Assembly (NCBI GenBank): GCA_041500865.1
Contig: JBGQMY010000009.1
Location: forward strand, 1 to 40,976
Length of the DNA stretch: 40,976 bases
From: Candidatus Micrarchaeia archaeon
Lineage (GTDB): Archaea; Micrarchaeota; Micrarchaeia; Anstonellales; J096
Direction of reading: 5' to 3'
Shown here piece by piece: positions 2,664-39,891 of the stretch. The position numbers and the translations under genes were made by a program. Position 1 is the first letter of the stretch; every line of letters begins with the position of its first letter. The notes beneath the pieces are model-generated. The model saw nothing but the letters and a program-made list of their open reading frames with translations. It searched no databases and had not been told where the DNA came from.

Positions 2664-3494
2664 TCATTTCTTCTCAGCAACAATCAAAATTTCGCCCATG
2701 CAGGTGGCGTAACGGACAGGCCGCCTCAGGATGGCCGATTTAAAAAATCTCAGGACGTTTATGAGATGGATTTTTGCGTAGGATGCGGAGAACAGGAGAT
2801 ACCTGAAAAAGGCAATCCCTGACACCGCGTACATGAATCTGAAATAGGACAATTTGGCGTTGTTGAAAAAAGAAAGAAGCGGTTTGCTGCCTGAAAACAG
2901 CCTGCGGATGCGGGGCTCAAATGGCAGCCGCGGTACCCAGTAGAATCTTTTGAGGACCGGCGTGAAACCGGAACGCTGCAATGAATCGGAAAGCAGCTCA
3001 AGGTTCCAGCCCTGCAGGTGCCCCAGCTCGTTTACTGGATTATTGGAAGGCTCAAAGGTTTGCACCTCGGCCGGCAAAACCATGATAACCGCTCCCCCGG
3101 CCATGAGCTTGCTGTAAAACTTTTTTAATTTGGAAAACGGGTCTTCCACGTGCTCAAGCACGTGCGAACAGTATATCGCGCTCGCTTTGCCGTCGCCAAT
3201 TGAATCTATGTCGTTGACGCAGCCAATCCCGTTGTCTTGCATGTAATGAAGGGCGCCCGTGTCAACCTCGACAACAGTGACGTTTTGCAGCTTTCGGGTC
3301 TTTTCCCCGATTCTGCCCCCAAAATCCAGCACGCGCTCCCCCCAGTCGCCCTTTTTGCCAAAATGGAAAAGGAAGGCGTACTCGCTCTCCTGGGCGACGT
3401 AATCTTCCACGCTGCCGCCATTCTTTTTGATGTCGCCCAGAACGTTATCTTCAAAAAAATGCGAATAGTCCTTTGCGTTCATACCCCTGTCCAT
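2664..3494 (-). CDS. Class I SAM-dependent methyltransferase with hydrophobic C-terminal segment
   Basis: VLDFGGRIG motif I, VEVD, YCSHVLEHV, KLMAGG. Paralog of 12610-13410. Confidence 0.8.
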   Translation of the reverse strand: MDRGMNAKDYSHFFEDNVLGDIKKNGGSVEDYVAQESEYAFLFHFGKKGDWGERVLDFGGRIGEKTRKLQNVTVVEVDTGALHYMQDNGIGCVNDIDSIGDGKASAIYCSHVLEHVEDPFSKLKKFYSKLMAGGAVIMVLPAEVQTFEPSNNPVNELGHLQGWNLELLSDSLQRSGFTPVLKRFYWVPRLPFEPRIRRLFSGSKPLLSFFNNAKLSYFRFMYAVSGIAFFRYLLFSASYAKIHLINVLRFFKSAILRRPVRYATCMGEILIVAEKK

Positions 3495-3504
3495 TTCATG
3501 CGCC

Positions 3505-4494
3505 TCAGTAGTTCCTGAACCTGTAATCGCGGAAGGCCTCGTAGCCCTTCACGAGCTCCTGTATGCCCTGCTCAAGCGGATACTTGAACGTGAACCCGGT
3601 TGCAAGCATCCTGTCGTTTGAGACCACGTAGTTTCTCTTGTCAGGGTCGCTCCCTATGTCCCCGTAGAATATGTTCAGGTCAGGTATGAATTTCTTTATG
3701 GCGAGGGCAAGCTCCTCCTTTGTTATGTTGTAGTCCGGATGCCCGACATTGTATATCCTGTTCTTCATCTTGTCCCAGTTCGCAATCGTCCACAGGAACG
3801 CCCTGCCTGCGTCCCTCACATGCGCAAAGTTCCTTTTGAACGTTTTCTCAAAAAGCACGAGCGTCTTGTCCTTGAACGCCCTGTAAACGAAATCGTTGAC
3901 CAGCGGGTCGGTCCTCATCCTCGGCGAGAAGCCGAACAGCGTGGCCAGCCTGAAGCAGACGTAGTCCCCGGCTTTCGTTATCTCCTGCTCGGCAGCAGCC
4001 TTGCTCCTGCCGTACGTTGATATGGGGTTGAGCGGGCTTTCCTCGGTGCATGCGGACTTCCCGTCAGTGATGCCGTATCCGGAATTCGTTGTCGGGAATA
4101 TTATCCTGGAGCCTTTTTTCCTGTATTTGAGGATTGTCTTTATCGCCCCGTGGTTTATCATCCAGGTTATCTCCGGTTTCTGTTCCGACACCGGGAATCC
4201 GACGACCGCGGCCAGCGGGATTATGAACTCGTACTCTTCCTTTTCCAAAACGCCCTTCATGAAGTTCTCGTTCGTCACGTCGCCGTACACGAACCTGATG
4301 TTCCCGCTGTGGAAGAGGTTGAACAGCGTGTTCTGCGCATAGCTGAGATTGTCAATCACCGTTATATGGAACCCCCTTTCCACAAGCATCTCGCAGAGCA
4401 CCGAGCCAAGGTAGCCTGCGCCGCCTGTCATGAGTATCCTGCTGCTTTTTGCCATCTCCCTTAGCCTTTTTTCCGTGTTACCGTCAAAATCCAT
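3505..4494 (-). CDS. NAD-dependent sugar epimerase/dehydratase
   Basis: TGGAGYLG, PLAAVVG, YGRSK, FRLATLFG. Start uncertain (4494 has an SD-like GAGGG; 4527 possible). Confidence 0.85.
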   Translation of the reverse strand: MDFDGNTEKRLREMAKSSRILMTGGAGYLGSVLCEMLVERGFHITVIDNLSYAQNTLFNLFHSGNIRFVYGDVTNENFMKGVLEKEEYEFIIPLAAVVGFPVSEQKPEITWMINHGAIKTILKYRKKGSRIIFPTTNSGYGITDGKSACTEESPLNPISTYGRSKAAAEQEITKAGDYVCFRLATLFGFSPRMRTDPLVNDFVYRAFKDKTLVLFEKTFKRNFAHVRDAGRAFLWTIANWDKMKNRIYNVGHPDYNITKEELALAIKKFIPDLNIFYGDIGSDPDKRNYVVSNDRMLATGFTFKYPLEQGIQELVKGYEAFRDYRFRNY

Positions 4495-9715: not shown

Positions 9716-10624
9716 ATGAAAGTATTAATAACTGGTGCAGCTGGATTCGTCGGCTCCAGGCTCTGCAAGCATTTCGAGTCAAGAGGCCATGAGGTGATAG
9801 CATGCGACAACTTCCGCTTCGGGTCGCACAAAACGCTTAAGGGATTCAAAGGGAAGGTGTTTTCCAAGGATTTCTCATCGATAACAGACGATGATTTGGC
9901 CGGAGTGAATGCCGTTTTCCATGAGGCTGCGATATCCGATCCCACTTTCAAGTCAGAGACTGAGATAATGGAGACCAACTTCCAGGATGCGTCTGCGTTC
10001 ATGGACCGCTGCTGCGGCCTTGGGATACGTTTCATATATGCTTCCTCATCTGCCGTATATGGAAATACCAAGACACCGAACGTTGAATTCATGGACGAGA
10101 AGCCGCATAATGCCTATGCCATGTCCAAGCTTAAGCTGGACCATTATGCCATAAAAAAGATGAAGGACGGAAACAGGATAAACGGCCTGAGATACTTCAA
10201 CATATATGGCCCTGGCGAGGAGTTCAAGGGCAAGCCATCGTCAATCGTATTCCATTTCCTGAAAAGCTTCCTTTCAGGGGACCGCCCGGTGATTTTCGGG
10301 GACGGCAAACAGAGGCGCGATTTCATATACATAGAGGATATCCTCAATGCGAACGAGCTGGCCATTTCAGCCAAGGAAAGCTTCATAGTCAACGTGGGCA
10401 GCGGAAAATCAACATCTTTCAATGATCTTTATAGGCTGATAGAGGAAGAGCTTGGAATGGAAGAAACAGGCCCGATATACAAGCCGAATCCATCCCCCAG
10501 CAATTACCAATACAATGTCGAGGCCAGCCTGGACTTATGCGCGCACAAGCTTGGATTTGTTCCATCCTGGAGTCTAAAGAACGGCATAAAGGAATTTGCC
10601 GCATATCTGGAGGCGGTATTATAG
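9716..10624 (+). CDS. Nucleotide-heptose 6-epimerase-like SDR (HldD/RfaD-like)
   Basis: TGAAGFVG, FHEAAISD, METNF, YASSSAVYG, YAMSK, GLRYFNIYGPGEEFKG, QRRDFIY; heptose gene context. Confidence 0.75.
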   Translation: MKVLITGAAGFVGSRLCKHFESRGHEVIACDNFRFGSHKTLKGFKGKVFSKDFSSITDDDLAGVNAVFHEAAISDPTFKSETEIMETNFQDASAFMDRCCGLGIRFIYASSSAVYGNTKTPNVEFMDEKPHNAYAMSKLKLDHYAIKKMKDGNRINGLRYFNIYGPGEEFKGKPSSIVFHFLKSFLSGDRPVIFGDGKQRRDFIYIEDILNANELAISAKESFIVNVGSGKSTSFNDLYRLIEEELGMEETGPIYKPNPSPSNYQYNVEASLDLCAHKLGFVPSWSLKNGIKEFAAYLEAVL

Positions 10625-10689
10625 TGAGCAGCAATCCGTATAAAGACTCCTGGTGCCAGCCTTTAAAAGCTTAGCGCGCATGTATTATT

Positions 10690-11613
10690 ATGGACAACTT
10701 ATCGCATGTTGTAGTCACCGGCGGAGCGGGATTCATAGGAAGCAATATCGCCAGGAAACTCATCCAAAGAGGCGATGAAGTTTCAGTTGTTGACAATATG
10801 CACACCGGCTCGCCCGGGAACCTAGGCGGAGTCGGCATAAAGAAGCTGTACAAGGAAAATGTCGGAAACATCGGCAAGCTCGGGATGGGCGATGTGGATT
10901 ATATCTTTCATGAGGGGATATATTCCTCATCTCCGATGTACAGGGAAGATAAGAGGCTTACCGGCAAGGCCGTTTCGGAATTCATAGAGCTGATGGAGTT
11001 CGCGAGAGCCAAGGACATAGGGGTTACTTTCGCGTCAACCTCTTCGATATACAATGGATTTAAGCCACCGCACAGGGAAGACATGCTTCCGCTGGTAAGG
11101 GATTTCTATACAGAAGCCAGATATCCGATGGAGAGGATAGGCAAGCTCTACTCCGACATATATGGGATAAAGGTAATTGCGCTGAGATACTTCAGCGTTT
11201 ATGGGCCACACGAAAAGGCAAAGGGCGAGTATGCAAACCTGATTACCCAGTTTATGCTGGGCATGGCAAAGGGAAAGAGGCCGGTGATATACGGGGACGG
11301 AAGCCAAAGGCGGGATTTCATCAATGTTGATGACGTTGTCAAGGCAAACATCATGTCGATGGAGAAGAGAAATCTGAATTATGGTTTTTTCAACGTCGGA
11401 ACCGGAAAGAGCTACAGCCTGAATGAGATGGCGGGGATGCTGAACAAGAGCATGAGGAAGAGCATAGCTCCGAGATATGTAGAGAACAAGGCTTTCAATT
11501 ATATTCATGAAACGCTTGCGGATGCCTCGCTGTGCAAAGAAAAGCTTGGATTTGAAGCCAAGATTAGCCTTGAAACAGGGATAAAGAATCTGGTCAGTTT
11601 CTACGGATACTGA
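10690..11613 (+). CDS. NAD-dependent epimerase/dehydratase (YxxxR variant)
   Basis: TGGAGFIGS, FASTSSIY, YTEAR, LRYFSVYGP, GDGSQRRDF. Confidence 0.85.
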   Translation: MDNLSHVVVTGGAGFIGSNIARKLIQRGDEVSVVDNMHTGSPGNLGGVGIKKLYKENVGNIGKLGMGDVDYIFHEGIYSSSPMYREDKRLTGKAVSEFIELMEFARAKDIGVTFASTSSIYNGFKPPHREDMLPLVRDFYTEARYPMERIGKLYSDIYGIKVIALRYFSVYGPHEKAKGEYANLITQFMLGMAKGKRPVIYGDGSQRRDFINVDDVVKANIMSMEKRNLNYGFFNVGTGKSYSLNEMAGMLNKSMRKSIAPRYVENKAFNYIHETLADASLCKEKLGFEAKISLETGIKNLVSFYGY

Positions 11614-11629
11614 TTGAAAATGGCAGAAG

Positions 11630-12524
11630 ATGGATAATATGGCAACATTGGAGATAACAACCCGGATAGGATGCAGCAATATGTGCGTGTATTGCCCGCA
11701 GAAGCTTCTTTTGGATAGTTATGCATTAAGGAACGCAGAGGCAGACAAATATGTAATGTCATTTGAGGACTTCAAAACCTGCATAGGCAAAGTGCCAAAA
11801 AACGTGCATATACACTTTACCGGCTTTGCCGAGCCGTTCCTGAACCCAGACTGCATGGAAATGGCAGAATATGCGGATAAGGCAGGATACCCAATTCATA
11901 TTTATACCACGCTTATGGGCATGCATCCATCAGACATGCATAAAATTTCTTTGATGAAAAACCTTGTCGGGCTTGTCGTGCATCTTCCAAGCAGGCAGAA
12001 TGACACGAAGATAGTTGTTGACGGCAAATACCTCAATAACCTTGAAAGCGCATGCGAGCGCATCAAGCCGCTGGAATTTGTCTATTTTGGCGAACTGGAC
12101 GACAGGATTAAAGGAATCGTGGGGGGGGGGGGCTTACCTGAAAGACAAGGCAACGCTTCATGACAGGGCCGGAACATTAAGCGAGGATAAATTGGTTGGA
12201 TTCAATTCTGTTTCAAAACAGGAAAGGAAAAAAGGCGTCATAACCTGCTATTCCTGCGGAAACAAGTTAGACCACAATATCCTTCTTCCAAACGGCGACG
12301 TTGTACTGTGCTGCATGGACTATGGCATGAAACACGTTATTGGCAACCTGCTGACAGACGATTATGTCTCGTTGTTCCAGTCCAAAGAATACAAAAGGGT
12401 AAAAAGCGGACTTTCAAACCCAAATGAGGACATTATATGCAGGGATTGCTTCAATTCCATTGAAAGAAAAGGCGTTTGGGGATGGATAAGATACCTCAAT
12501 GCAGTGCGGAAAGAATGGATTTAA
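11630..12524 (+). pseudogene. Radical SAM/SPASM-domain protein, out of frame at a G12 tract (candidate phase-variable gene, OFF state)
   Basis: ORF1: CSNMCVYC (CxxxCxxC), FTGFAEPF, YTTLMG. ORF2: HDRAG, C..., LLPNGDVVLCCMDY, IGNL, CRDC (SPASM). G11 would join them into 297 aa. Confidence 0.85.
12121..12132 (+). repeat. Homopolymeric G12 tract
   Basis: ATCGT GGGGGGGGGGGG CTTAC; by far the longest homopolymer I saw in the window. Confidence 0.97.
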
Positions 12525-12609
12525 GGACGTTATGGCATTAGCGAATAGCGTTAAACCCAGCTCCCAAACCAAAGCATAGTTTTTTATATTTCCCGCACGG
12601 TATGCCGTT

Positions 12610-13410
12610 ATGACCTGGGAAGAGAAAAACTATCAAGGATATTCGAGCGGAACGCTTGGCAGCGCCCTTTTGGAAGAAAACGTCTTTTATGAATCAGAAC
12701 GGGCCTTCAGGCTTCATTTCAACAGCGCTGCAGATTTCGGCAAGTGCATCGACTTCGGCGGCAGGATAGGGGAAAGGACGAGAAAAATACGCGATATTGT
12801 TGTATTTGAGATTGACAAGGGCTCAATAGAATGGATGAAGAATGAAAAAATACTATGTATCGGCAATATCGAGGGCATACAGGACAATTCGCTGGACATG
12901 GTCTATTGCTCCCATGTTTTGGAGCACATAAAGAACTATAACATGACATTGGACACGATCCGCAGGAAACTGAAGGATGGCGGGCAGCTTATTCTGGTGG
13001 TGCCCGTCGAGTTCCCAAAGATTGATTTCGGCGGTTTTGTAATAGACGAGAACGGCCATATACAGAATTGGGGCCTGCCGAACATTTTCACGGTCCTTGA
13101 CAACAGCGGCTTTGCGGTTGAGGGCTGGAAGACGCTGTTCGTCCCCCTAATCCCATTCTCAAAAAGGCTGTTCTGCCATTCCAGGTCAGTTCCAAGGGCG
13201 GTTAAGACAGCATACCTTGACATCCAGTCCAAACTTCTCAAACACAAGACAATCCGCTTTGTGGCGTATGCCATATGCGCAGCCATGTCGTTTTCCATAA
13301 ATTCATTTATAGTTTTTCCGTTTTCCGTTTTTGGGAAGAGGCCCCCTTCATTCTTCATAAATCCGATTCTTGGCGAGATTGTCGTTTACTGCAGAAAACC
13401 GGGGCAATAG
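12610..13410 (+). CDS. Class I SAM-dependent methyltransferase with hydrophobic C-terminal segment
   Basis: IDFGGRIG, FEID, YCSHVLEHI, KLKDGG. Paralog of 2664-3494. Confidence 0.8.
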   Translation: MTWEEKNYQGYSSGTLGSALLEENVFYESERAFRLHFNSAADFGKCIDFGGRIGERTRKIRDIVVFEIDKGSIEWMKNEKILCIGNIEGIQDNSLDMVYCSHVLEHIKNYNMTLDTIRRKLKDGGQLILVVPVEFPKIDFGGFVIDENGHIQNWGLPNIFTVLDNSGFAVEGWKTLFVPLIPFSKRLFCHSRSVPRAVKTAYLDIQSKLLKHKTIRFVAYAICAAMSFSINSFIVFPFSVFGKRPPSFFINPILGEIVVYCRKPGQ

Positions 13411-13543
13411 CCAAGAATAAGCGTTTTAAACCCGACAACCGGATGCTTTTTAAATTCGGGCTGCCATCGCTATTTTCAATGTTCCATCAGCTCAAGGCGC
13501 AGCGTTTAGGCATTAAAAATGATGTAGCATCCTGGCGTTTCCC

Positions 13544-14431
13544 ATGAAAACCATAATGTCCAGGACCGGCGAAAAGCTGGGGATAACCCTGTTTGACAAT
13601 GGCGGCAACGCGCGGGAGCTGGAAAGCATGGAAGAATACTATTTCCTGGTCAACCTGTGGGGGAACGCAAGGCGCTGCCTGAAATACATCATAGCGAAAT
13701 CTTTGGTAAGGATGGACGCTGTCTCGCTGTTCGTGCTTTCCAAGTTTCTCATGAAAAAAATGGCTGGCGCCGAAATCACTACCGAGCGAGACCAGCTCTT
13801 TGAGAGGCTGTCCGGGATTCACCATTTTGAGCTGCTCTTCAGGGGCAGGAGAATCCAATTTTCCCAAAATCCCGGCTTCATCTTCAACACCATCCACCAG
13901 GTATTCACTGAAAACCAGTATAATGTAAGCGAAAAGAACGTAATGGGCAAGATTGTAGTTGACGCTGGCAGCCAATTAGGAGATTTTTCAATACTTTGTG
14001 CCTGCTATGGGGCAAAGAAAGTCTATGCCTTTGAGCCAATAGAAAAGGATTTCAAGATTTTGCAGCAGAATATAAAGCTGAATGGATTAGAAGATATCAT
14101 AATCCCATTCCAAAATGCGGTCGGATCAGAGAATGGGAAAGTCAACATTGGCTCCGCTACAAGTCCAGTGGATGTTGATTGTATAGCATTAGACACTTTC
14201 CTAGATGGAGAAAGGATTGATTTCCTGAAGATGGATATAGAAGGAGATGAGGAAAAAGCGCTCATCGGGGCAAAAGAGACTATCAAGAAATTCAAACCAA
14301 TATTGTCTTTTGCAGCATACCACTATAATGGCAAATATAAGACTAGGCTTCAGGAAGTAGTGCATTCAATAAGGCCTGATTATGCGATAAAGCTGAACTC
14401 GTTCTACGAGGAGGACTTCTACTGCGAATAG
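13544..14431 (+). CDS. FkbM-family methyltransferase
   Basis: VVDAGSQLGDFS, VYAFEP, NIKLN, IDFLKMDIEGDE, AAYH. Confidence 0.88.
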   Translation: MKTIMSRTGEKLGITLFDNGGNARELESMEEYYFLVNLWGNARRCLKYIIAKSLVRMDAVSLFVLSKFLMKKMAGAEITTERDQLFERLSGIHHFELLFRGRRIQFSQNPGFIFNTIHQVFTENQYNVSEKNVMGKIVVDAGSQLGDFSILCACYGAKKVYAFEPIEKDFKILQQNIKLNGLEDIIIPFQNAVGSENGKVNIGSATSPVDVDCIALDTFLDGERIDFLKMDIEGDEEKALIGAKETIKKFKPILSFAAYHYNGKYKTRLQEVVHSIRPDYAIKLNSFYEEDFYCE

Positions 14432-14464
14432 CGTTTTTTAAACCCAACTTCTTAACTGAAGTAT

Positions 14465-15592
14465 ATGCAGCTTGCGATACTTTGCGGCGGATTGGCTACG
14501 AGGCTCGGCGGCCTGTCCAAGGGCGTCCCAAAGGCCCTGATGGGCATCAACGGCAGGCCCTTCCTTGATTTGATATTCGAAAGATACAGGGCAGCCGGCT
14601 TCACCAGGTTCGTGCTTCTTGCAGGGTACCTTGCAGACCAGCTCAAAGGTTACGAGTCGGCGGACACATCGATGGTGGTTGAGCCAGAGCCCCTTGGCAC
14701 AGGCGGCGCGGTGCTAAACGCCCTTGGCCAGCTGGAAAGCAGGTTCTGGCTGGCAAACGGCGACACCTACCTCATGGCGCCGGATATGGCGGAATTCGTG
14801 GCATTCTCAATGGACAAGCCGGCCTCCATGTACATGACGTACGAGGACGCGTTCGACAAGGATGTCCCGAGACTGGAAAATGGCAGGATAACCGGCTTCA
14901 CCAGGAGCGACACAGGCAGGGACTGGGTCAATGCAGGGCTTTTCTCCTTCTCTAGGGATGCACTGAAGGGGTTCGGCAAAGGCAAGCTGGAGCTCGAGAA
15001 GGACGTCCTTTCAAAAATCGCGTCACAAGGCGGGCTTTACGGCTTCAGGGGGAAAGGCAAGCTGTTTGACATAGGCAGGCCCGAGCGGCTTGAGCTGTTC
15101 AGGAACTTCATGAAGGAAAAGGGCAAAAGGAAGGCAGTGCTGATAGACAGGGACGGGACGATAATGGAGCATGTTCACTACATCAACGACCCGGACAGGG
15201 TTGTCATCAGGGAGCTTGTCGTTGAAAAGCTCAAAGCGTTCCGTGATGCGGGCTACATGGTTATCATGGTCTCCAACCAGAGCGGGATAAAAAAAGGCCT
15301 GATAACAAAGGAGCAGCATGACGCGGTCATGCAAAGGATGGACGAGCTGCTGGCCGAGAAGGGCCTGGAGCTGGACGACGTGCTCTTCTGCTTCTCAACG
15401 GACAAGGACAACGACCCAAGGCGCAAGCCAAGCCCTGGCATGATTTTTGAGGCGAGGGACAAGTACGGCCTTGACCTTTCGCAGTGCGTCATGGTCGGGG
15501 ACAGGGAAGACGTTGACATGGAGGCTGGCAGGCGCGCAGGCATCGGAAGGTGCTACCTTGTTGATGATTTCGTCAAAAGCGCAAAACCCTAA
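14465..15592 (+). CDS. hddC-gmhB: Fused heptose-1-phosphate guanylyltransferase (HddC-like) and heptose-1,7-bisphosphate phosphatase (GmhB-like HAD)
   Basis: N: LCGGLATRL, PKAL, EPEPLGTGGA, NGDT, NAG, FDIG.PE. C: DRDGT, VSNQSGI, RKPSPGM, MVGD...D. Confidence 0.9.
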   Translation: MQLAILCGGLATRLGGLSKGVPKALMGINGRPFLDLIFERYRAAGFTRFVLLAGYLADQLKGYESADTSMVVEPEPLGTGGAVLNALGQLESRFWLANGDTYLMAPDMAEFVAFSMDKPASMYMTYEDAFDKDVPRLENGRITGFTRSDTGRDWVNAGLFSFSRDALKGFGKGKLELEKDVLSKIASQGGLYGFRGKGKLFDIGRPERLELFRNFMKEKGKRKAVLIDRDGTIMEHVHYINDPDRVVIRELVVEKLKAFRDAGYMVIMVSNQSGIKKGLITKEQHDAVMQRMDELLAEKGLELDDVLFCFSTDKDNDPRRKPSPGMIFEARDKYGLDLSQCVMVGDREDVDMEAGRRAGIGRCYLVDDFVKSAKP

Positions 15593-20602: not shown

Positions 20603-23600
20603 CTAGTCTCTAGTAACCACTTTCACGAACCCGTGCTTCGGGAAATAGATTTCCCCGTTCCTCATCAGCTCGTCTATTATGCGCCTTGTCTTGCCCTCCT
20701 CTATGTTCACGCCCTTCGCCTCCTGGATTATCATCTCAACCTCAACCGCGTCATACTGCGAGGACAGCTCCTTGACTATGTCCATAACTTGGATAATCTT
20801 CTCCCTTTCGCTCTGGCTCCTGCCCGTGCTTATGATGTCAACGTCAATACGTCCAGTCTCCTGGTCAGTCATTATCGCCTTCATGACGTAGTTCATGATA
20901 TCCACCGCAACCTTGGCGTCCCTTTCCTGGACAGTGTCGCTCAGCCTCAGCTTCGCGTTCGCCTCAGCCAAACGGACCAAGCCCTCAAGGTACCTTGGCG
21001 TTATGGGGACAGAGCCGGTCCTCTGCCCCAGGCTCCTCAGGCTCAGGTAAAACTCCTTTATTGCCTTTGCCGCCTCTGCCGTGAGCCTGGGATTGATGTT
21101 CTTCTTTGCGTACGCGATGTATTTCCTGAGGACGTCGGTGCTTATTATGTCCTCCCTCTTTTCGGTTTTTTCATCCCGCTCCTCGCGCGAATCCAGGGCA
21201 TTGAGGTGCGTTCCGAGTATGTGGTCGGCCAGCCTCTCGTCCCTTTGCACGTCCAGTATGTCCAGTATCGGGAATATCAGGTCAAACCTTGAAAGCAGGG
21301 ACGGCGGTATGTCAAACTGCTCGCTTATGTGCTTGTTCTGCTGGAACCTCCCGAATTTCGGGTTTGCCGCAGCCACTATCGCCGTTTTCGCCCTTAGCGT
21401 TGCCACGATGCCAGCCTTGGCTATAGATACGGTGTTGTGCAGTACGGCGCATTCGGATATGAATGCCTGAGTTGGCCTAACAGTAACATCGTAAACCCAT
21501 GCCTCGTTTTCATTCCTTACCTTCTCGGTTTTCCTTATTGCCACAAAGCCGATGTCCCCTGTCGCAAACCTCTCAATGAGCCTGAACTGGCCTTCATTTT
21601 CCAGCATTTTTGCAAGCATGGCCTTGATGGCAGAGCGATACCTTCCAAGGAATATTTTCCTGCATTCCCAGTATGAGACAGTCGCCCTTTTTATCCCGGA
21701 AAATGCCTCAATGTCGTATTGGGACAGGTTTAGCTTCCTGCGGAGCATTATCAGCTCATCATAGCCGCAATTGTCAGCGCTTCCCATCGCGGCGCGCAAG
21801 GCATCAACCTTCTTTCTCATCGTTGCGCATACCTTTTCAAAGTTCCTGCGTGTAAAGCAGAATCCCCTTCTTTGGCTGTAAAGGCCGTAGCCAAGAACGG
21901 AATTTTCATCTATCTTGAGTTTTTTGAGAAGGCTGAGCACGGTTTTTGCGCATCCTGGGACCACGTCGGTGGTGCTCATGTTCCTCGTTTCCTTTTTCAG
22001 GTATTCGTCAAGCCTCTGCCTTTTCTTCTTTCCCAGAAAACCTATGGAGTCGCGGTACCTTTGGATGTTGTCTCTCCCTGTTATTGTCAGGCGGAAGACG
22101 TTTCCATCGGCAAACATATGGCTCCTTATGCCGAACCTCAGAAGAAGCGTCTGCACCTGCTCGATGAAGAACCTGTTTTCCCCGACTAGGCCTATGTAAT
22201 GCTCTGAGAAAGTCCCGTCAGAATCAAACATTGCGCGCAGCATTGCCGACACATGCTCTGGCTTGGCAGACATGAACTGGGGCGGCACTATCTTGTCTGC
22301 GCCCTTGCCGACAAGCGAAGGATGGAGCAGCTCCATCTGCCTCAGCGCACCCATGGAAATCATGCGCACAGCCTTTACCCCAGTTCCCGCCCTTTCCGTA
22401 AAATATGGCGCAACCCCGAAAGAGGCCGTCGCCGCCACGCTGTAATCATCTATCAGGTCATCGTCCTTGTTGTAGAAGTTTATCCCGTTCTTGCAACCGC
22501 GGTTTAGCTCATAGCCGCCGTCTGTTATATGATATCCGGTGACCTTTAGCAGTTCAGGCCTGAATTCTTCCCTGGATTGCGAAAGCGGAAGGCGGCGCGG
22601 CATAAGCGTATAATCCTTTGCTGTCAGTTCTTCCGCCGGCTTTGTCATGACTTCCCCGTTTTCCACCACCCAGAACGGGTGCTCCGGCGTGACCAGGACT
22701 TCGCGCCCGGTCTGCATCACCACCTTTATGAAATATTCCGGGGCCTTGTGCTTGCTGATTTGGTACGGCGCGGTTTCGCTTATCTTGCTGAAATCCGTAG
22801 TAAGGAGCCTGATGCCCCCGATCCCTTCCCTCAGGATAAGGCAGTCTTTTCCGGCCATTATCTTGTCGCGATTCGCTGCCATCAATCCCTCGACCAGTTC
22901 GCCAATCCTCATCTCAATGCCGTCTGAAAGCATGATTTTTGTGTTGAAGTGGTAGCTTTGGCTCTCCATCACTTCGTGAAGCGAGCCCCTGTCCTCGTCG
23001 TCTATCTTGTCGAACTCGTCTATCGCCGCTATGCCGCCGCTTGCCAGCACCAGTGCGCCTGCCTTTAGCGTCCAACCTTCCCCAGACAGCTCGTCCTTTT
23101 CCGCGCTTGCTGTCAACCCAACTCCGGAAACGCTCTTTCCGCTCACGTATATGCTCTTCAGCGCTATGGCTACTGTCTGCTGGAGGAACCTCGTCTTTGC
23201 GATGCCCGGGTCCCCGACAAGCAGCACGTGTATGTCGTCCCTTATCTTTGAGCCGCCGCTCGTTATCTTGTCCTTTGTCCCGCCGAAAAGCTGGAGCGCC
23301 AAGGCCTTCTTGATTTCCCTGTAGCCCCATATGTCCGGGGCGATGGAGTTCGTTATCATGTCCTCAAGGTCTTCCCTTGCCGCAAGCTTGAGTATCTCAG
23401 CCTCGTCCTCCTTCGTTAGCGGTATGTCCTCAAAGTCCTTCTTCAGCTTCCTTATGTGCACGATGTCCACGTGCTTTGAGAAGACGGTGTGCGACTTGTT
23501 CTTGCCCTGGTTCGGGCTTATCCTCAGTATGCCGCTCACCTCGACGTTGTCGCCGGGTATGATTTTGTTGACCAAATCGTCCTCCAGGTTGCATATCACC

Positions 23601-24181
23601 TTGGACGTGGGGCTTCCGGACCTCACCCTTTCCAGCATGTCCTGGACCTCTATCCTCTGCATGTCCAAAAACTTGCTTTCATCCAGCATTTCCTTGAGGA
23701 AGCCCTTCTTGCATATCGGGCACTTTGAAGGCGGGGTGAAATCCTTGATTACGACAAGCTCGAACCTCTCGCTGCACGAGCCGCACTTGTACACGAGCTT
23801 GTGCGCCTTGTTCAGCACGTCGCCCCTCCTGCCAATCAGCCCTTTGAACGAGAAGAACTTGTTCAGGTGCCTTGAGCCTATCTGCTCGACCAGCAGGTTC
23901 CTGTCCGGTATGCCGAAGAACCTAACATGGGGCTTGAAAGCATCCCCGGACGGCGTGGCTATCTTCAGCCCCTCAACGGCTGTCTCGGCCGCCTTTATGA
24001 GGTCGTCAGGGCTGTCGTTGAGCGCGTTGGCCAAGTCCACGTCAAATCCAAGCAGGTCCTTGAAGTCAACCTCAATGCTCCTGTTCTTGGGATAGTCTTT
24101 GAGTATGCGTTCAACCTCCTTCTGGTAAAAGGACGTGAAGAACTGCTCAAACTGCGGGACATATCCCTCAAGGTCTGCCAT
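20603..24181 (-). CDS. mcm: Replicative helicase MCM containing an intein
   Basis: CGSC/CPIC Zn finger, LVGDPGIAKT, AGALVLA, IDEFDK, AAANP, SRFD arginine finger; AGGAGGA SD. Confidence 0.97.
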   Translation of the reverse strand: MADLEGYVPQFEQFFTSFYQKEVERILKDYPKNRSIEVDFKDLLGFDVDLANALNDSPDDLIKAAETAVEGLKIATPSGDAFKPHVRFFGIPDRNLLVEQIGSRHLNKFFSFKGLIGRRGDVLNKAHKLVYKCGSCSERFELVVIKDFTPPSKCPICKKGFLKEMLDESKFLDMQRIEVQDMLERVRSGSPTSKVICNLEDDLVNKIIPGDNVEVSGILRISPNQGKNKSHTVFSKHVDIVHIRKLKKDFEDIPLTKEDEAEILKLAAREDLEDMITNSIAPDIWGYREIKKALALQLFGGTKDKITSGGSKIRDDIHVLLVGDPGIAKTRFLQQTVAIALKSIYVSGKSVSGVGLTASAEKDELSGEGWTLKAGALVLASGGIAAIDEFDKIDDEDRGSLHEVMESQSYHFNTKIMLSDGIEMRIGELVEGLMAANRDKIMAGKDCLILREGIGGIRLLTTDFSKISETAPYQISKHKAPEYFIKVVMQTGREVLVTPEHPFWVVENGEVMTKPAEELTAKDYTLMPRRLPLSQSREEFRPELLKVTGYHITDGGYELNRGCKNGINFYNKDDDLIDDYSVAATASFGVAPYFTERAGTGVKAVRMISMGALRQMELLHPSLVGKGADKIVPPQFMSAKPEHVSAMLRAMFDSDGTFSEHYIGLVGENRFFIEQVQTLLLRFGIRSHMFADGNVFRLTITGRDNIQRYRDSIGFLGKKKRQRLDEYLKKETRNMSTTDVVPGCAKTVLSLLKKLKIDENSVLGYGLYSQRRGFCFTRRNFEKVCATMRKKVDALRAAMGSADNCGYDELIMLRRKLNLSQYDIEAFSGIKRATVSYWECRKIFLGRYRSAIKAMLAKMLENEGQFRLIERFATGDIGFVAIRKTEKVRNENEAWVYDVTVRPTQAFISECAVLHNTVSIAKAGIVATLRAKTAIVAAANPKFGRFQQNKHISEQFDIPPSLLSRFDLIFPILDILDVQRDERLADHILGTHLNALDSREERDEKTEKREDIISTDVLRKYIAYAKKNINPRLTAEAAKAIKEFYLSLRSLGQRTGSVPITPRYLEGLVRLAEANAKLRLSDTVQERDAKVAVDIMNYVMKAIMTDQETGRIDVDIISTGRSQSEREKIIQVMDIVKELSSQYDAVEVEMIIQEAKGVNIEEGKTRRIIDELMRNGEIYFPKHGFVKVVTRD
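21434..22957 (-). mobile_element. 508-aa intein with LAGLIDADG homing endonuclease and an XRE-type HTH
   Basis: Splice junctions HEVMESQ/SYHFNTKI...VLHN/TVSIAKAG; block B VTPEHPF; GYHITDG and AMFDSDG motifs; VYDVTV block F. Removal leaves a 684-aa MCM. Confidence 0.95.
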
Positions 24182-24380
24182 CGTTAATCCTCCTAATGCC
24201 GCTTTTTATTGCATCCCAGACCCCGTTGCCAGCGGCCGGCTTGCGGAGTTTACGGCAATTGCTTGCCATTGCCCGTTTAAAAATGCCGGCTTCAAACCTT
24301 GAACAGGGGTCGCACTTCCGCTAATATTTAGTTAGTTTTATATTCTTTGTCTTATAACATATTCCCAAAGGTAGTTAAAC

Positions 24381-24917
24381 ATGGCAGACTTCATGCTTGT
24401 TTCAGACCCGTATTACAGGGGCGTGCTGGAGAGGTTCGGCTACGACTTTGAGCCGGTCAATGCGGAGATAAAGGACAGGGAGCTGTCAGACGCGAAGAAG
24501 ACCGCGATGTTCAACGCGTTTGTGCGGGCATTCAACCTCAACGAGATGATAAATAGGAACCTTCCCATTATATCGGTCTGCTCATACCTCGGCGTCGGCA
24601 ACTCCATAGTCGGCATAACCAGGGACGAGGAGGCCGCAAGGAAGGCCTGCATGTCCATGTCTGACGCATGGGTGTCCATGCACTGCGCGGTCTCCGCGGC
24701 ATACAAGAACAGCATAGCGACTGAATGCGAGACGCTGGACATGAGGATGAAGCACATAGACATGGACTTTGTCAACAGCATAATCAAGACGCAGAACCTG
24801 CATGAGAAGCCCGGATGCCTGTCCATAGACTTTGTCAAGGAATGGAACGGCGACATCGGATTGATGAAGGGGACCGGCAGGGAGCTGGTTGACAAGGCGC
24901 TTGCAAAGGTAATGTGA
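24381..24917 (+). CDS. Divergent Maf/ITPase-fold protein, catalytic residues apparently lost
   Basis: Pattern colinear with Maf along its length (FMLVSDPYYRGVLERFGYDF; IVGITRDEEAARK..MS; HEKPGCLSI; NGDIGLMKG) but lacking the SPRR, GADT and GKP motifs. Confidence 0.55.
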   Translation: MADFMLVSDPYYRGVLERFGYDFEPVNAEIKDRELSDAKKTAMFNAFVRAFNLNEMINRNLPIISVCSYLGVGNSIVGITRDEEAARKACMSMSDAWVSMHCAVSAAYKNSIATECETLDMRMKHIDMDFVNSIIKTQNLHEKPGCLSIDFVKEWNGDIGLMKGTGRELVDKALAKVM

Positions 24918-25717
24918 TGCTTGAGTTTATCAACCAATATTTCATCAACCCAATCAACGAGCACGCAGGATACAACATGGTCAACACGGCCGTTTATGTC
25001 GTCATAGCGCTCGCTGCGCTATACCTAATAAGGCAGTTCCTGAGGTCCCGCAAGGTTGAGATTGACAACTACTTCATTTACACTGTCATCGCGTTCGTGC
25101 TTTTCGGCTCTACCAAGAGAGTCATAACAGACGCGATAGACTCAGGCATGCAGTTCAATCCGCTGGTAAACAGCCTGCTTTCGTACAACGCCTTCAACGT
25201 GACGCCCGGCATCTACGTCTTTGTCGGAGGCCTTTTTTTGATTTCAGTTGCCATTGATTATTTTACAAAAAGGAAGGTCGCCCTCTGGATAGGAGTAGCC
25301 TTATTCTTGGCCCATCTCCTGGTCCTTCTTTCGCTGCTTTACCGCATAAACCTGTTCTATTTCGGGATGATAGGCGTGCTCGCCGCCATTCCGTTTGCCG
25401 CGCTCTATCCGTATTTCAAGGACAAGCTGATGCCATTCGTGATATTTTCCCAGGCATTGGACGGAGGGGCGACCTTCACGGCCCTTGACCTGAAGGGCGG
25501 CTATTTTGAGCAGCACGTCTTCTCCAATTTCATAGGCCAGAACTTCGGCTTCTTTGCTTTCTACCTGCTAAAAGTGGCACTGGCCACAGCCTTCGTTTAC
25601 CTGGTTGACAAGGAGAAGATGGACAGTTTTGACAAGCGCTACCTGCTCGTCATTGCCATGGTTTTCGGCCTTGCGCCGGGCTTGAGGGACCTGCTCAGGA
25701 TTGCGTTTGGCGTTTAA
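24914..25717 (+). CDS. DUF63-family integral membrane protein
   Basis: GYNMVNT, RVITDA, TPGIY, QALDGGAT, YFEQH, GLAPGLRDLLR motifs; many TM helices. Confidence 0.85.
   Translation: MMLEFINQYFINPINEHAGYNMVNTAVYVVIALAALYLIRQFLRSRKVEIDNYFIYTVIAFVLFGSTKRVITDAIDSGMQFNPLVNSLLSYNAFNVTPGIYVFVGGLFLISVAIDYFTKRKVALWIGVALFLAHLLVLLSLLYRINLFYFGMIGVLAAIPFAALYPYFKDKLMPFVIFSQALDGGATFTALDLKGGYFEQHVFSNFIGQNFGFFAFYLLKVALATAFVYLVDKEKMDSFDKRYLLVIAMVFGLAPGLRDLLRIAFGV
25671..25717 (+). repeat. 47-bp direct repeat, copy 1 (3' end of DUF63 gene)
   Basis: TTGCGCCGGGCTTGAGGGACCTGCTCAGGATTGCGTTTGGCGTTTAA; 45/47 identical to 26348-26394. Confidence 0.95.
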
Positions 25718-26084
25718 TCTCTTTTTCCAGCTGCCTGTCAAATGTGAGCGCCTTCTGCCCATGCTTTTTTGATACGAGCAATATTGCGTAATCCACATAG
25801 CTCATTCTTTGTCCGGTATTTTCTGCCATTTCGAATGTTTCCTCTTCTTCGGACTTGTCCAGGGAATATACCAGGATTCTGCGGTTTGCTTTAAGTTTTC
25901 CGATGCATTCAATGGCGAATCCAGTGCCCTTCTTGTATACAAGAACCGTAAATGTTTCTTCCAGCACCCTGTCCAGGGCGATTATCTCCTCTTTGCCGCT
26001 TTCAAGCGACATTTCAACAGCTTTTTCATGATGCTCGTCATTGGCCAGGAAAAGGGCAACAAGGAAAGACGTGTCCGCAATCAT
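25695..26084 (-). CDS. vapC: PIN-domain toxin (VapC)
   Basis: MIADTSFL, VLEET, SYVD, LTFD acidic PIN residues; ATGA overlap with the antitoxin stop. Confidence 0.88.
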   Translation of the reverse strand: MIADTSFLVALFLANDEHHEKAVEMSLESGKEEIIALDRVLEETFTVLVYKKGTGFAIECIGKLKANRRILVYSLDKSEEEETFEMAENTGQRMSYVDYAILLVSKKHGQKALTFDRQLEKEIKRQTQS

Positions 26085-26314
26085 CTGGAAACACCGTAGG
26101 CTATCCTGTCCACGTTTTCGCTTATCCTTTCCTTTTTCCTGCTGCGTCCGGGAAGCCCGCCAATCCATTTCAGCAGTTCCGCCCATCCCTCGGTTTTTTC
26201 CTCATTTCCGGTTTCCACACTGGAAATTATCACGTCGCTGAAGCTCATGCCCTCCTTTTTCAGCAGCCTCATGCGCCTGTACGCCTCCTCGGATATGCTT
26301 ATGACCTTTACCAT
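26081..26314 (-). CDS. vapB: Archaeal VapB-type antitoxin
   Basis: MVKVISISEEAYRRMRLLKKEGMSFSDVI N-terminus; directly upstream of the PIN gene. Confidence 0.85.
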   Translation of the reverse strand: MVKVISISEEAYRRMRLLKKEGMSFSDVIISSVETGNEEKTEGWAELLKWIGGLPGRSRKKERISENVDRIAYGVSR

Positions 26315-26347
26315 ATGCATATAGCATGCGCATACATTTTAAAAACA

Positions 26348-26394
26348 TTGCGCCGGGCTTGAGGGACCTGCTCAGGATTGCATTTGGCGTATAA
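26348..26394 (+). repeat. 47-bp direct repeat, copy 2 (orphan DUF63 3' end)
   Basis: TTGCGCCGGGCTTGAGGGACCTGCTCAGGATTGCATTTGGCGTATAA. Confidence 0.95.
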
Positions 26395-26465
26395 CCGCCG
26401 GAGCATACCACATTTTAAATCCTTTTTATACACAATAGCCATGTTGCCGGTTTGGATGGTCAGAC

Positions 26466-27578
26466 ATGAATGTGGAATGCCCTAAGTTTGCATATGAAAA
26501 AATTACAAAAAACAAGGCGCTTCACAGCAGAATCATCAGGAAAAAGGACAAATGGGGGGACGTTCTAATAGGATGTGGCCTTGGCGGAACAGAGTGGAGG
26601 ATAATTGACAAAGCCAAAAAATACCTCAAGGACATCAAGGACTTGTCAAAAATAGACATGATGCTCAAGAAAATCTATTTGGATATTCTTGAATTTGACC
26701 AGATAATGGAAAGGCTTGATTATTTTTGCATAGACAAAAGCGAGTTGCTGATAAAACACCCTACGTTACTGGCATATGCGATTCTGGGCAAGGATATCCT
26801 CAACCCGCAAAAATACGGCTTCAAGTCAAGGCGTCAGCTTGAGGAGTCAATAGCAAGCTTCTGCATCGGGGAACACTGGAACCTTGGCTATGCCCATGGA
26901 GAAAGGTATGTCTGGAGAAATCGGCAATACAAAAACATGTTCTGCAATGCCCCGCATGGCGACCTCTCCTTAAGCCAGGTAGAAGTGTCCGGCTACCACC
27001 GGACGTTTGACACCTTATTCGGGACTGAGGAGGATTTTGACACATGGAAAGACACAGGGGATTATACGGAATACCTCACATCATTCCAGAACTGGAGCAG
27101 CATCCTGATGTGCGTCCTCAGGTACGCCGAGGCAATCGGGAAAGGGAGGATTCCCGAGATAACCGATTGGAAAGAGATAGAAAAAGGGCTTGGCGGTTCC
27201 GTTCCTGCGACTGCAGAGGCATTGTTTGGAGGCGACCACTTACATCTGGAATTTCTGGTCGATTACCCTATTTTGATTGAGGGAAAAGATGTAGACCGCA
27301 TGCCCCTGGGCGTTATGTCCGGCATCAGCGATGAGGCGTTCCTGAATTTAGCCTATGTTAAGGGCGGCAAACTGTGTTTCTTGAGGGAAGACAAGAATGG
27401 AAGCATATCCCCGCTAAACAGGGGGTATTTCAAGGGCAAAAGGTATTCCGTCCACATGGATTTCGAGGAATCGGACCTGCCGGATTTGCTGAAAGGCATA
27501 TACAAGCTTTACTCAAGGGACAAGAGGGAGCTGCCTAAGCTCATGGACGAGTTCATGAAAAACCCCACCTCTAAATGA
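26466..27578 (+). CDS. Hypothetical soluble protein (370 aa)
   Basis: Long ORF with natural composition; no motif recognised. Confidence 0.7.
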   Translation: MNVECPKFAYEKITKNKALHSRIIRKKDKWGDVLIGCGLGGTEWRIIDKAKKYLKDIKDLSKIDMMLKKIYLDILEFDQIMERLDYFCIDKSELLIKHPTLLAYAILGKDILNPQKYGFKSRRQLEESIASFCIGEHWNLGYAHGERYVWRNRQYKNMFCNAPHGDLSLSQVEVSGYHRTFDTLFGTEEDFDTWKDTGDYTEYLTSFQNWSSILMCVLRYAEAIGKGRIPEITDWKEIEKGLGGSVPATAEALFGGDHLHLEFLVDYPILIEGKDVDRMPLGVMSGISDEAFLNLAYVKGGKLCFLREDKNGSISPLNRGYFKGKRYSVHMDFEESDLPDLLKGIYKLYSRDKRELPKLMDEFMKNPTSK

Positions 27579-27894
27579 GCCCAACGGCAAGCGACGCCGC
27601 ATTGCACACTAAGCTGGCCAATATGGCATCTTCCCACCCTATCTTTCCAAACAGCCAGCGGTAAACGGCTGCTTCTACACCAAAGGCAAACAGCTCCGCA
27701 ATTGATGTTCCAATAAGCCAGCCAAAACCAAATGCCGGAAACGCAAACCAGACGAACGGCAGCGTGAGCGAGTTCGCGGTTATTGAATTCCGGGCGATTA
27801 GCCAGGCCGGATATCTTTTGTGCAACAGCAGGAACAGCAAAACAGTCTCAACCGCAACAGTGACAATATACGCAGACGCGAAATCCAGGGGCAT
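27571..27894 (-). CDS. Small integral membrane protein
   Basis: About four hydrophobic segments with TVAVE, ANSLTLPFVW, AELFAFGVEA, CNAAS. Confidence 0.75.
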   Translation of the reverse strand: MPLDFASAYIVTVAVETVLLFLLLHKRYPAWLIARNSITANSLTLPFVWFAFPAFGFGWLIGTSIAELFAFGVEAAVYRWLFGKIGWEDAILASLVCNAASLAVGLI

Positions 27895-28404
27895 TCATCT
27901 TCCCCTTGCAAGCGCCACTATTGCCACGAACCCCAGTATGGCAAGCGAAGGGCAAAGCGGGCTCGGCGGAGGGCTTGGATGGGGATTTTCCTCTGATGCG
28001 TTCAGCGCCCCGGTCGCTATGTCAAGCGTAAACTTGTAATATCCGCCCTTCTCAAGCGAAATTTCCTGGCTCGTCAACGTCCCGTTCTCGGCCTGCACCA
28101 TGAACATGCCAGTTGAGTAGAAGCAGGGGTTCGAATAAGAGTACCATTCGAACCATTCGCTGGCTGCGCATATCCCATTGCTGCAGTTGATTGCGATGTT
28201 GCCGGGCTTTGTGTCGCTTAAATTCGTGATAGTGTGGTTTCCAGCCAATGAGCAAAGATAGGTTAATTTCGCCTCGCCGGCATAAGGCTGGCCGTTGTTG
28301 GCAAGGCTGATGTGGACGCTTGGCTGCATGGGCGGCGGGGCGTCCGCAAAAGCAAGAGCCATGATAAGCAGCGAGAGAATGGCAACGACAGGCAATCTTC
28401 CCAT
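27895..28404 (-). CDS. Secreted protein with signal peptide and C-terminal membrane anchor
   Basis: MGRLPVVAILSLLIMALAFA-DAPPP; Cys and N-x-S/T sites; PSPPPSPLCPS-LAILGFVAIVALARGR tail; TATA ~22 nt upstream. Confidence 0.75.
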   Translation of the reverse strand: MGRLPVVAILSLLIMALAFADAPPPMQPSVHISLANNGQPYAGEAKLTYLCSLAGNHTITNLSDTKPGNIAINCSNGICAASEWFEWYSYSNPCFYSTGMFMVQAENGTLTSQEISLEKGGYYKFTLDIATGALNASEENPHPSPPPSPLCPSLAILGFVAIVALARGR

Positions 28405-39049: not shown

Positions 39050-39315
39050 GCCTAGCATAGCTTTTTTTGGGTGCAAAAATAGTTTTCTTTCCGCAACCCT
39101 TTTCTTTCAAAAAGAAAATGGTTTAACGAAAAGAAACGCTTTTGGCTCAGCAGAGCCCAAAAATAGCTTCTTTTGGGGTGAAGACTTTTTCTTCTCTGAA
39201 ATTTGTCGGCGTCGGTTTTTCCCTGGGCTTTTTTCTAAAGTAGTTTTTCTTTCCGCAGAAGCCATGAAAAAGGAAGGTTGAGCCTCAAGGGAACCTTGGT
39301 TCCCTTAGGAAAGAA
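39050..39315. repeat. Non-coding cluster of T-rich repeats and hairpins
   Basis: 39072-39095 identical to 39840-39863 (24 bp); 39210-39234 identical to 39816-39840 (25 bp); hairpins at ~39098-39121 and 39287-39306 (AAGGGAACC-TT-GGTTCCCTT). Confidence 0.85.
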
Positions 39316-39815: not shown

Positions 39816-39891
39816 CGTCGGTTTTTCCCTGGGCTTTTTTGCAAAAATAGTTTTCTTTCCGCAGGAGCTTTCTTTTTCTAAAAGAAAGGGG
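39816..39891. repeat. Complete copy of the non-coding repeat with terminal hairpin, abutting the tRNA 3' end
   Basis: CGTCGGTTTTTCCCTGGGCTTTTTTGCAAAAATAGTTTTCTTTCCGCAGGAG followed by CTTTCTTTT-TCT-AAAAGAAAG. Confidence 0.85.

Follow-up and report, generated by a model that had tools for sequence, protein, structure and literature searches.

A vapBC cassette between duplicated ends of the DUF63 gene in a Micrarchaeia genome

The movement of chromosomal toxin-antitoxin (TA) genes without a visible mobile element is poorly explained. Element-free movement has been stated for restriction-modification (RM) systems in a review of TA and RM systems (PMC3874152), and restriction genes are found in insertions with long target duplication, for which the release and re-entry steps are described as lacking experimental evidence (PMC2853133). 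[quoted passage not shown] Short variable segments with flanking repeats are reported to be common in bacteria (10–18%, mostly <30 bp; PMC2884548), and this commonness makes a single vapBC case less surprising. In the open-access literature, at the level of listings and abstracts, neither TA pairs nor cassettes of Micrarchaeota were found described with a scar of the kind analysed here. The vapBC insert described below could hardly be smaller or cleaner, with a precise empty allele in the wild, distinguishable donor and host alleles, and a host family in which no site-specific recombinase was detected.

The window, the whole stretch of DNA analysed, is the 40,976-nt contig JBGQMY010000009.1 (C9) of assembly GCA_041500865.1 from Candidatus Micrarchaeia archaeon. 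The genome that holds it (G000) is 1.04 Mb and 92% complete, and its gene content is archaeal, with MCM and thermosome genes. It was compared with two congeners (G001 and G002, making three genus genomes), a sister species (L069), the 19 family genomes including G000 (77–94% complete), and a wider set of 61 genomes from the family and order. Contigs from four of nine listed sequencing runs (X1–X4, four studies) were placed on window positions 24000–28000; runs X5–X9 (shares 0.05–0.11) were left out of this comparison. Upstream of the locus, the MCM gene (20603–24181, minus strand) carries an intein containing a LAGLIDADG domain and encodes 1192 aa vs 684 aa in the G002 and L069 orthologs, which thus have no intein. 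Positions 10000–14500 have lower GC (0.41–0.48) and genes that by eye resemble those for sugar-nucleotide enzymes, and were likely acquired. Short repeats lie downstream of a tRNA-Leu gene (39072–39095, 39210–39262, and 39816–39868), and a 25-mer from beside this gene has five copies in G000, located near tRNA genes by coordinates.

The anchor of the cassette is a DUF63 membrane-protein gene (24917..25717, plus strand; PF01889, E 1.5e-43; alternative start GTG 24914), a family matched in 59/61 genomes searched. Two direct repeats of 47 nt, at 25671–25717 and 26348–26394, are 96% identical with two mismatches, and their spacing of 677 equals 630 unique bases plus one repeat copy. The first 34 nt of the repeat are identical between the copies and match twice in the window and not at all in 100 shuffles, and blastn revealed no third repeat copy in G000. 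The left copy (plus strand) forms the functional end of DUF63 and carries the alleles GCG and GTT, whereas the right copy (plus strand) has GCA and GTA at the corresponding positions (25705/26382 and 25714/26391). Both differences are synonymous in DUF63, whereas in the overlapping vapC frame they are non-synonymous (left alleles, IKRQTQS*; right alleles, IIRQMQS*). Read on the opposite strand, the left copy encodes the last seven codons and the stop of vapC, the stop itself lying at 25695–25697. The earlier note, made from the window's sequence, had reported a 47-bp duplication of the DUF63 end 677 bp apart with two synonymous mismatches, and had placed vapB-vapC alone between the repeats with the toxin stop inside the left one; repeats, alleles and gene content are as it claimed, and to the content we add a 33-bp promoter region, beyond which the interval holds nothing else. 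Terminal inverted repeats at the cassette ends were absent among the 25 longest inverted repeats listed, and none spans vapC, so the cassette does not have the terminal inverted repeats and short target duplication of a transposon or MITE. No junction hairpin was seen by eye at the DUF63 cassette, and a single 8-bp stem occurs at the C2 case described below. An origin through an RNA intermediate was also considered and is unlikely, as a TATA-like run lies inside the cassette.

The cassette genes are both on the minus strand. The vapC gene (25695..26084) encodes a 129-aa PIN-domain toxin (PF01850, E 2e-10) in which the acidic residues D4, E42, D98, and D116 are invariant among eight aligned homologs. 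Such acidic residues are catalytic in PIN domains. A match to VapC20 in the PDB is weak (E 2.5e-4), and the GC3 of vapC falls at the 2nd percentile of G000 genes. The vapB gene (26081..26314; PF02697, E 6e-11; alternative start ATG 26320) encodes a 77-aa antitoxin and overlaps vapC by 4 nt (ATGA). Upstream of it, 26314..26347 (minus strand) is a predicted promoter/operator, assigned from a TATA-like run (26337–26345) and two palindromes (26314–26321 and 26326–26333); the cassette junction falls 2 bp beyond the TATA-like run, and the region is conserved upstream of a homologous module in genome G246. VapC toxicity and the resulting addiction are predictions from family membership alone.

Across the family, PF02697 genes mostly sit beside ftsZ or RFC-like genes (labels assigned by eye), with no repeat spanning them. 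Spanning repeats (score ≥17) were found at 5 of 29 other vapC loci and at 0/29 DUF63 control loci; four of the five are AT-rich, promoter copies or likely chance, and the only clean gene-end case is in G246. There, another gene is followed by a homologous promoter-vapB-vapC (61% DNA identity) that has the opposite orientation and a 66-bp duplication of its own, making G246 the exception among the six closest vapB modules, of which the other five have no flanking duplication.

The cassette is a real insertion/absence polymorphism among near-identical genomes. In X2, a 1,263-nt contig (depth 5.8) joins 25670 to 26348, skipping exactly 677 bases with no other difference; 34 letters beyond the join fit either side, followed by the right-copy alleles, and the crossover position accordingly lies somewhere within the first 34 bp of the repeat. 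The same run holds a 151-nt piece of the cassette (depth 2.5), so both alleles are present, with cassette-free cells in the majority. The left junction is spanned in X3 (24992–26025) and X1, and the right junction in X4 (26180–26424) and X1, the X4 record reaching 30 nt past the repeat, just below the 31-nt bridging rule. In X1 the cassette stands at flank depth (8.6 vs 9.4 and 7.9). An assembly that merged two strains would agree with the coexistence of filled and empty alleles in X2, with the lack of any single record across both junctions and both flanks among the X1–X4 contigs listed, and with the missing X1 record for 26378–26622, a gap that in itself proves nothing. Such an artefact is nevertheless extremely improbable, since the junctions recur with 0 differences in different studies and gene-end duplications also occur in G002, a separate genome. 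That the cassette is a recent insertion or loss, in line with the earlier note's reading, is borne out by the empty site, found in another study, and by both junctions, found in other runs.

The DUF63 site also differs among relatives. In L069, whose DUF63 is 92% identical at the amino acid level, the gene lies directly against a 107-aa gene (27571..27894, minus strand, in the window), an insert-free state with neither vapBC nor the 370-aa gene that stands between them here. The latter (26466..27578, plus strand; no match in Pfam, NCBIfam or Atlas) lies outside the cassette and is an older variable gene at the same site: G002 has a 123-aa gene and then a homolog of the 370-aa gene (69%) behind DUF63, and G001 has a different gene. 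Because L069 and the congeners G001 and G002 carry no vapBC at DUF63, the cassette is, on these comparisons, not the ancestral state of what is a variable site. The different cargo that the earlier note had proposed to look for at the DUF63 end of relatives is thus present, and a duplication-free TA pair as the ancestral state, its own counter-scenario, was not seen. A vapBC pair directly behind DUF63 in L096/L097 was considered as such a state and rejected, being unrelated (32%), co-directional and free of duplication, in a distant host. Given the variable site, the absence of the cassette from relatives and the right-copy alleles of the X2 empty site, the right copy is likely the displaced resident DUF63 end.

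Among 110 DUF63 loci, 100 could be scored, and the 3′ duplication occurs only at the window locus; the 99 others, 75 of which had ≥700 bp downstream, show neither the duplication nor a larger element. TA pairs are common survivors of decaying elements, and the cassette could be what remains after internal deletion removed the integrase and most cargo from a larger integrated element. Besides the lack of any larger element at these loci, however, no relic lies between the repeats, and a gene-sized layout of this kind is found again at many sites, so that we regard this origin as highly improbable.

The closest VapC, P0002 (81%), bears on where the left copy came from. The antisense of its last residues can be read as a G002-type DUF63 end at 7/7 positions, compared with ≤3/7 for five other homologs. 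These seven residues suggest that a vapBC module overlaps the DUF63 end in another species, in which case the overlap would be older than the duplication and the left tail would have travelled with the cassette; the tail of the left copy thus likely came in with it. A metagenome scan for the DNA surrounding P0002 confirmed 0/270 candidates, and a VapC scan of GTDB contigs gave one distant match of 159.

Gene-end duplications are not peculiar to DUF63. A scan of G000 found terminal or near-terminal duplications of 29–76 bp at seven low-copy genes and one mid-gene case, and 7/8 terminal has a probability of about 1e-5 under uniform placement. The terminal cases are DUF63 (47 bp), the thermosome gene (76), a gene on C2 (64), the 5′ end of a gene on C1 (43), an AMP-phosphorylase-like gene (29), an ABCE1-like gene (32; obtained with a looser filter), and Lhr (44; decayed). 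The count excludes C8 (a tandem paralog at a contig end), C3 (a repeat pair beside an RT gene), and C16 (a repeat protein), and no inverted repeat pair of score ≥20 was found at G000 low-copy genes. The G000 cargo is diverse and includes a dihydroorotate dehydrogenase fusion, Fic, ankyrin, and ASCH genes and a pta-ackA-thiolase block. At the thermosome and ABCE1 sites the G000 cargo is absent from G001 and G002, and at the AMP-phosphorylase site both congeners have the pta block next to this anchor with no second copy, an arrangement that looks donor-like. In G002, a scan of 691 kb (40 stretches, about three quarters of the genome) gave four clean cases of 21–64 bp, one of them around a HEPN-nucleotidyltransferase pair, and two have an empty site in G000; paralog, ankyrin, promoter, repeat-pair or old mid-gene matches accounted for the 18/22 listed direct pairs that were excluded. 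Together the two genomes have at least 11 unrelated targets with repeats of 21–76 bp, among which no common motif was seen. By cargo, spanning repeats occur at 3/19 Fic homolog loci vs 0/29 DUF63 control loci.

Several related observations were made along the way. The sole mid-gene case in G000 (C22:11741–11772 and 14004–14035) is a 32-bp copy of mid-gene sequence upstream of the neighbouring gene; we take the source to be topoisomerase VI A-like and the neighbour B-like. The RT-like gene of C3 (18403–20715) has an 83-bp diverged repeat pair and a similar locus in G002 (L249), presumably resembling a diversity-generating retroelement. Contig C36 (2413 bp), which could be either a circle or a collapsed repeat, has a terminal repeat of 141 bp and features that we assume to be group II intron-like. 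G000 also holds about 100 paralogs, of ankyrin type by the members scanned, often inserted beside core genes and sharing an upstream motif. A more distant archaeon has a perfect 23-bp duplication of the Kae1/TsaD 3′ end (L097:2280–2302 and 3043–3065), which delimits a 763-bp two-gene cassette with no Pfam match. In another distant archaeon (DUF63 32% identical), a gene-start duplication of about 165 bp surrounds 1.76 kb of cargo (L146:2119–2284 and 3880–4046), so the scar is not confined to the group of G000. In another family, a perfect 61-bp direct repeat flanks a Fic gene with 77% identity to the one carried as cargo in G000 (L204:1420–1480 and 2386–2446).

The duplications at several other sites (76, 43, 26, 21, and 64 bp) are free of mismatches, as would be expected if foreign DNA were patched into a staggered break and both copies were host-derived, diverging later in the manner of a long target-site duplication; double-strand breakage has been proposed for the restriction-gene cases (PMC2853133). 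At DUF63, however, two differences fall inside a stretch of 13 bp, whereas 1,263 flanking bases are the same as in X2, and the overlap of vapC with DUF63 appears from P0002 to predate the insertion. A staggered break is therefore very unlikely as the source of this duplication.

A dedicated recombinase was searched for by domain. PF00589 (tyrosine recombinase) and PF07508 (large serine recombinase) were each found in 0/19 family genomes, and PF00239 was not found in G000; the earlier note's "no integrase" thus extends from the element to the rest of the genome, where the search for PF00589 was likewise empty, and no recombinase of the kind by which an integrase element is recognised was found in element or genome. 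Mobile helper elements are often absent from bins, and the cassette could be a non-autonomous element moved in trans by a recombinase of a virus or plasmid, with the 47 bp as attL and attR. The layout matches that of an integration in which the 3′ end is replaced, protein genes can serve as targets of archaeal integrases according to PMC8371274, PF00589 is present in 22/61 genomes of the wider set, and the repeat head contains a 6-7-6 imperfect dyad. Against this, similar dyads occur at 158/783 gene ends, a background level at which the dyad is more likely chance than an att core; no recombinase was found in the family; at least 11 unrelated targets with repeats of 21–76 bp share no motif that we could see; and the viral contigs gave no exact match to the 32-nt repeat pattern and, among 40 candidate stretches aligned to VapC, no relative of it. 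We consider a helper integrase improbable. The description of the duplication as "att-like" is therefore not supported, in a family in which no such recombinase was found and with variable-length duplications at many unrelated gene ends.

The account that we favour, held at about even confidence, is that the promoter-vapB-vapC segment entered without an integrase, through host recombination with DNA of a close relative whose DUF63 end already lay against vapBC. Host recombination is suggested by the many unrelated targets, the variable repeat lengths, the position of one edge at a gene end and the lack of a recombinase. In such an event, donor DNA comprising the DUF63 end and vapC-vapB-promoter would enter the cell, and its DUF63 part would recombine with the resident gene (RadA is present in 3/3 genus genomes), so that the last codons of the gene would be those of the donor. 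Just past the promoter, the donor's opposite end would form an illegitimate joint 47 bp ahead of the resident stop, and the resident DUF63 end would remain downstream as an orphan copy. New cargo would land beside the anchor gene and push older cargo, here the 370-aa gene, downstream, and through the perfect 34-bp head the two copies could recombine or slip, so that the cassette would be lost precisely. The duplication is then best read as a scar left by capture rather than as a dedicated att site, and the genus likely often gains genes at core-gene ends by such capture. Of the origins that the earlier note had offered, a donor relative with homologous recombination is the likeliest, and mobilisation by a trans-acting integrase is not supported, PF00589 and PF07508 having been found in none of the 19 family genomes.

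Several observations sit less well with capture, among them the experimental rarity of homology-facilitated illegitimate recombination mentioned above. Such recombination usually removes recipient DNA instead of duplicating it. The three genus genomes gave no DprA, all genomes are incomplete (G000 at 92%), the donor arrangement is read from the seven residues of P0002, and 5/6 closest vapB modules have no flanking duplication. Moreover, if X2 represents a never-filled ancestor, the 0 differences over 595 bp upstream would make the donor tract very short, which fits a circle better than an extended linear anchor. A 677-bp circle of the kind the earlier note had suggested, excised from a relative that had the duplication, could have re-integrated without an integrase by a single homologous crossover in the 34-bp head, the cassette shuttling among congeners at DUF63. 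The left repeat and interior would supply the promoter, vapB and the whole of vapC with its stop, and the allele pattern is the one expected, with a differing left tail, an empty site equal to the right copy and no upstream differences. The 34 bp lie just above the roughly 30-bp threshold for E. coli RecA quoted in PMC2884548; the open-access literature gave no usable threshold of this type for archaea. The X1 cassette record starts and ends with the same 30 bases, although this self-overlap follows from the repeat alone. No "go back" joint of the kind a circle would give is listed among the contigs of the four runs, and the X1 cassette depth is that of its flanks. Re-entry of a circle also leaves the first formation of the duplication at each new site unexplained, as it does the donor-like state, free of duplication, at the AMP-phosphorylase site, and we rate it as rather unlikely.

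Capture and circle re-entry yield the same product and may be stages of one cycle. More speculatively, the lineage could possess something like an integron without an integrase, in which a recombinase-free lineage captures gene-sized cassettes behind core-gene ends together with a spare gene end, small circles excise and re-enter related cells by short homology, and vapBC is an addictive circle shuttled between species at DUF63; this wider proposal seems to us unlikely. The locus nonetheless suggests that small-genome archaea routinely gain genes at the ends of core genes, and island finders based on integrases would miss such gains.

As proteins, the pair is a type II vapBC module (PF01850 and PF02697), with a PIN toxin of conserved acidic residues and an upstream, coupled antitoxin, and it shares with that class the antitoxin-toxin order, the 4-nt overlap and the promoter palindromes. 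It differs in that the VapC C-terminus is encoded by the antisense of the target gene; the proteins are otherwise ordinary, with predicted activity. As an insertion, the cassette resembles the insertions with long target duplication in being small and without a mobility gene, in its near-identical direct repeats (46–47 bp), which can overlap a gene 3′ end, in the single copy at the empty site and in its addictive-type cargo (PMC2853133). By the definition of Furuta 2010, its duplication exceeds 30 bp (47) and is single at the empty allele (X2), and its insert is below 20 kb (630 unique bp) with no other mobile element. The genes inside are PIN and PF02697 only, in place of R and M, and for lack of RM cargo the cassette is a variant of this class and not a member as defined. 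The cargo is a TA pair whose toxin is an RNase by family, with no DNA-cutting enzyme, so the proposed source of the break is not in cis. The toxin reading frame enters the repeat, and the same scar here also brackets metabolic, ankyrin, Fic, and HEPN cargo. The host, too, is an archaeon, and no archaeal case is reported to have survived the Furuta 2010 screen (PMC2853133). With the tyrosine-integrase elements and their non-autonomous derivatives (PMC8371274), the cassette shares the replacement 3′ end on the element side, the displaced host end downstream and the precise empty site; in contrast to them, no integrase was found in the cassette, the genome or the family, neither target nor repeat length is fixed, and the repeat has no significant core dyad. 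The V. cholerae T6SS arrays (PMC5361080) are alike in combining one homologous anchor in a conserved gene with one illegitimate joint, and in placing new cargo beside the anchor while older cargo, together with an orphan 3′ end, shifts downstream. They differ in that here an ordinary core gene serves as the anchor and regains an intact end, in a genus whose three genomes gave no DprA.
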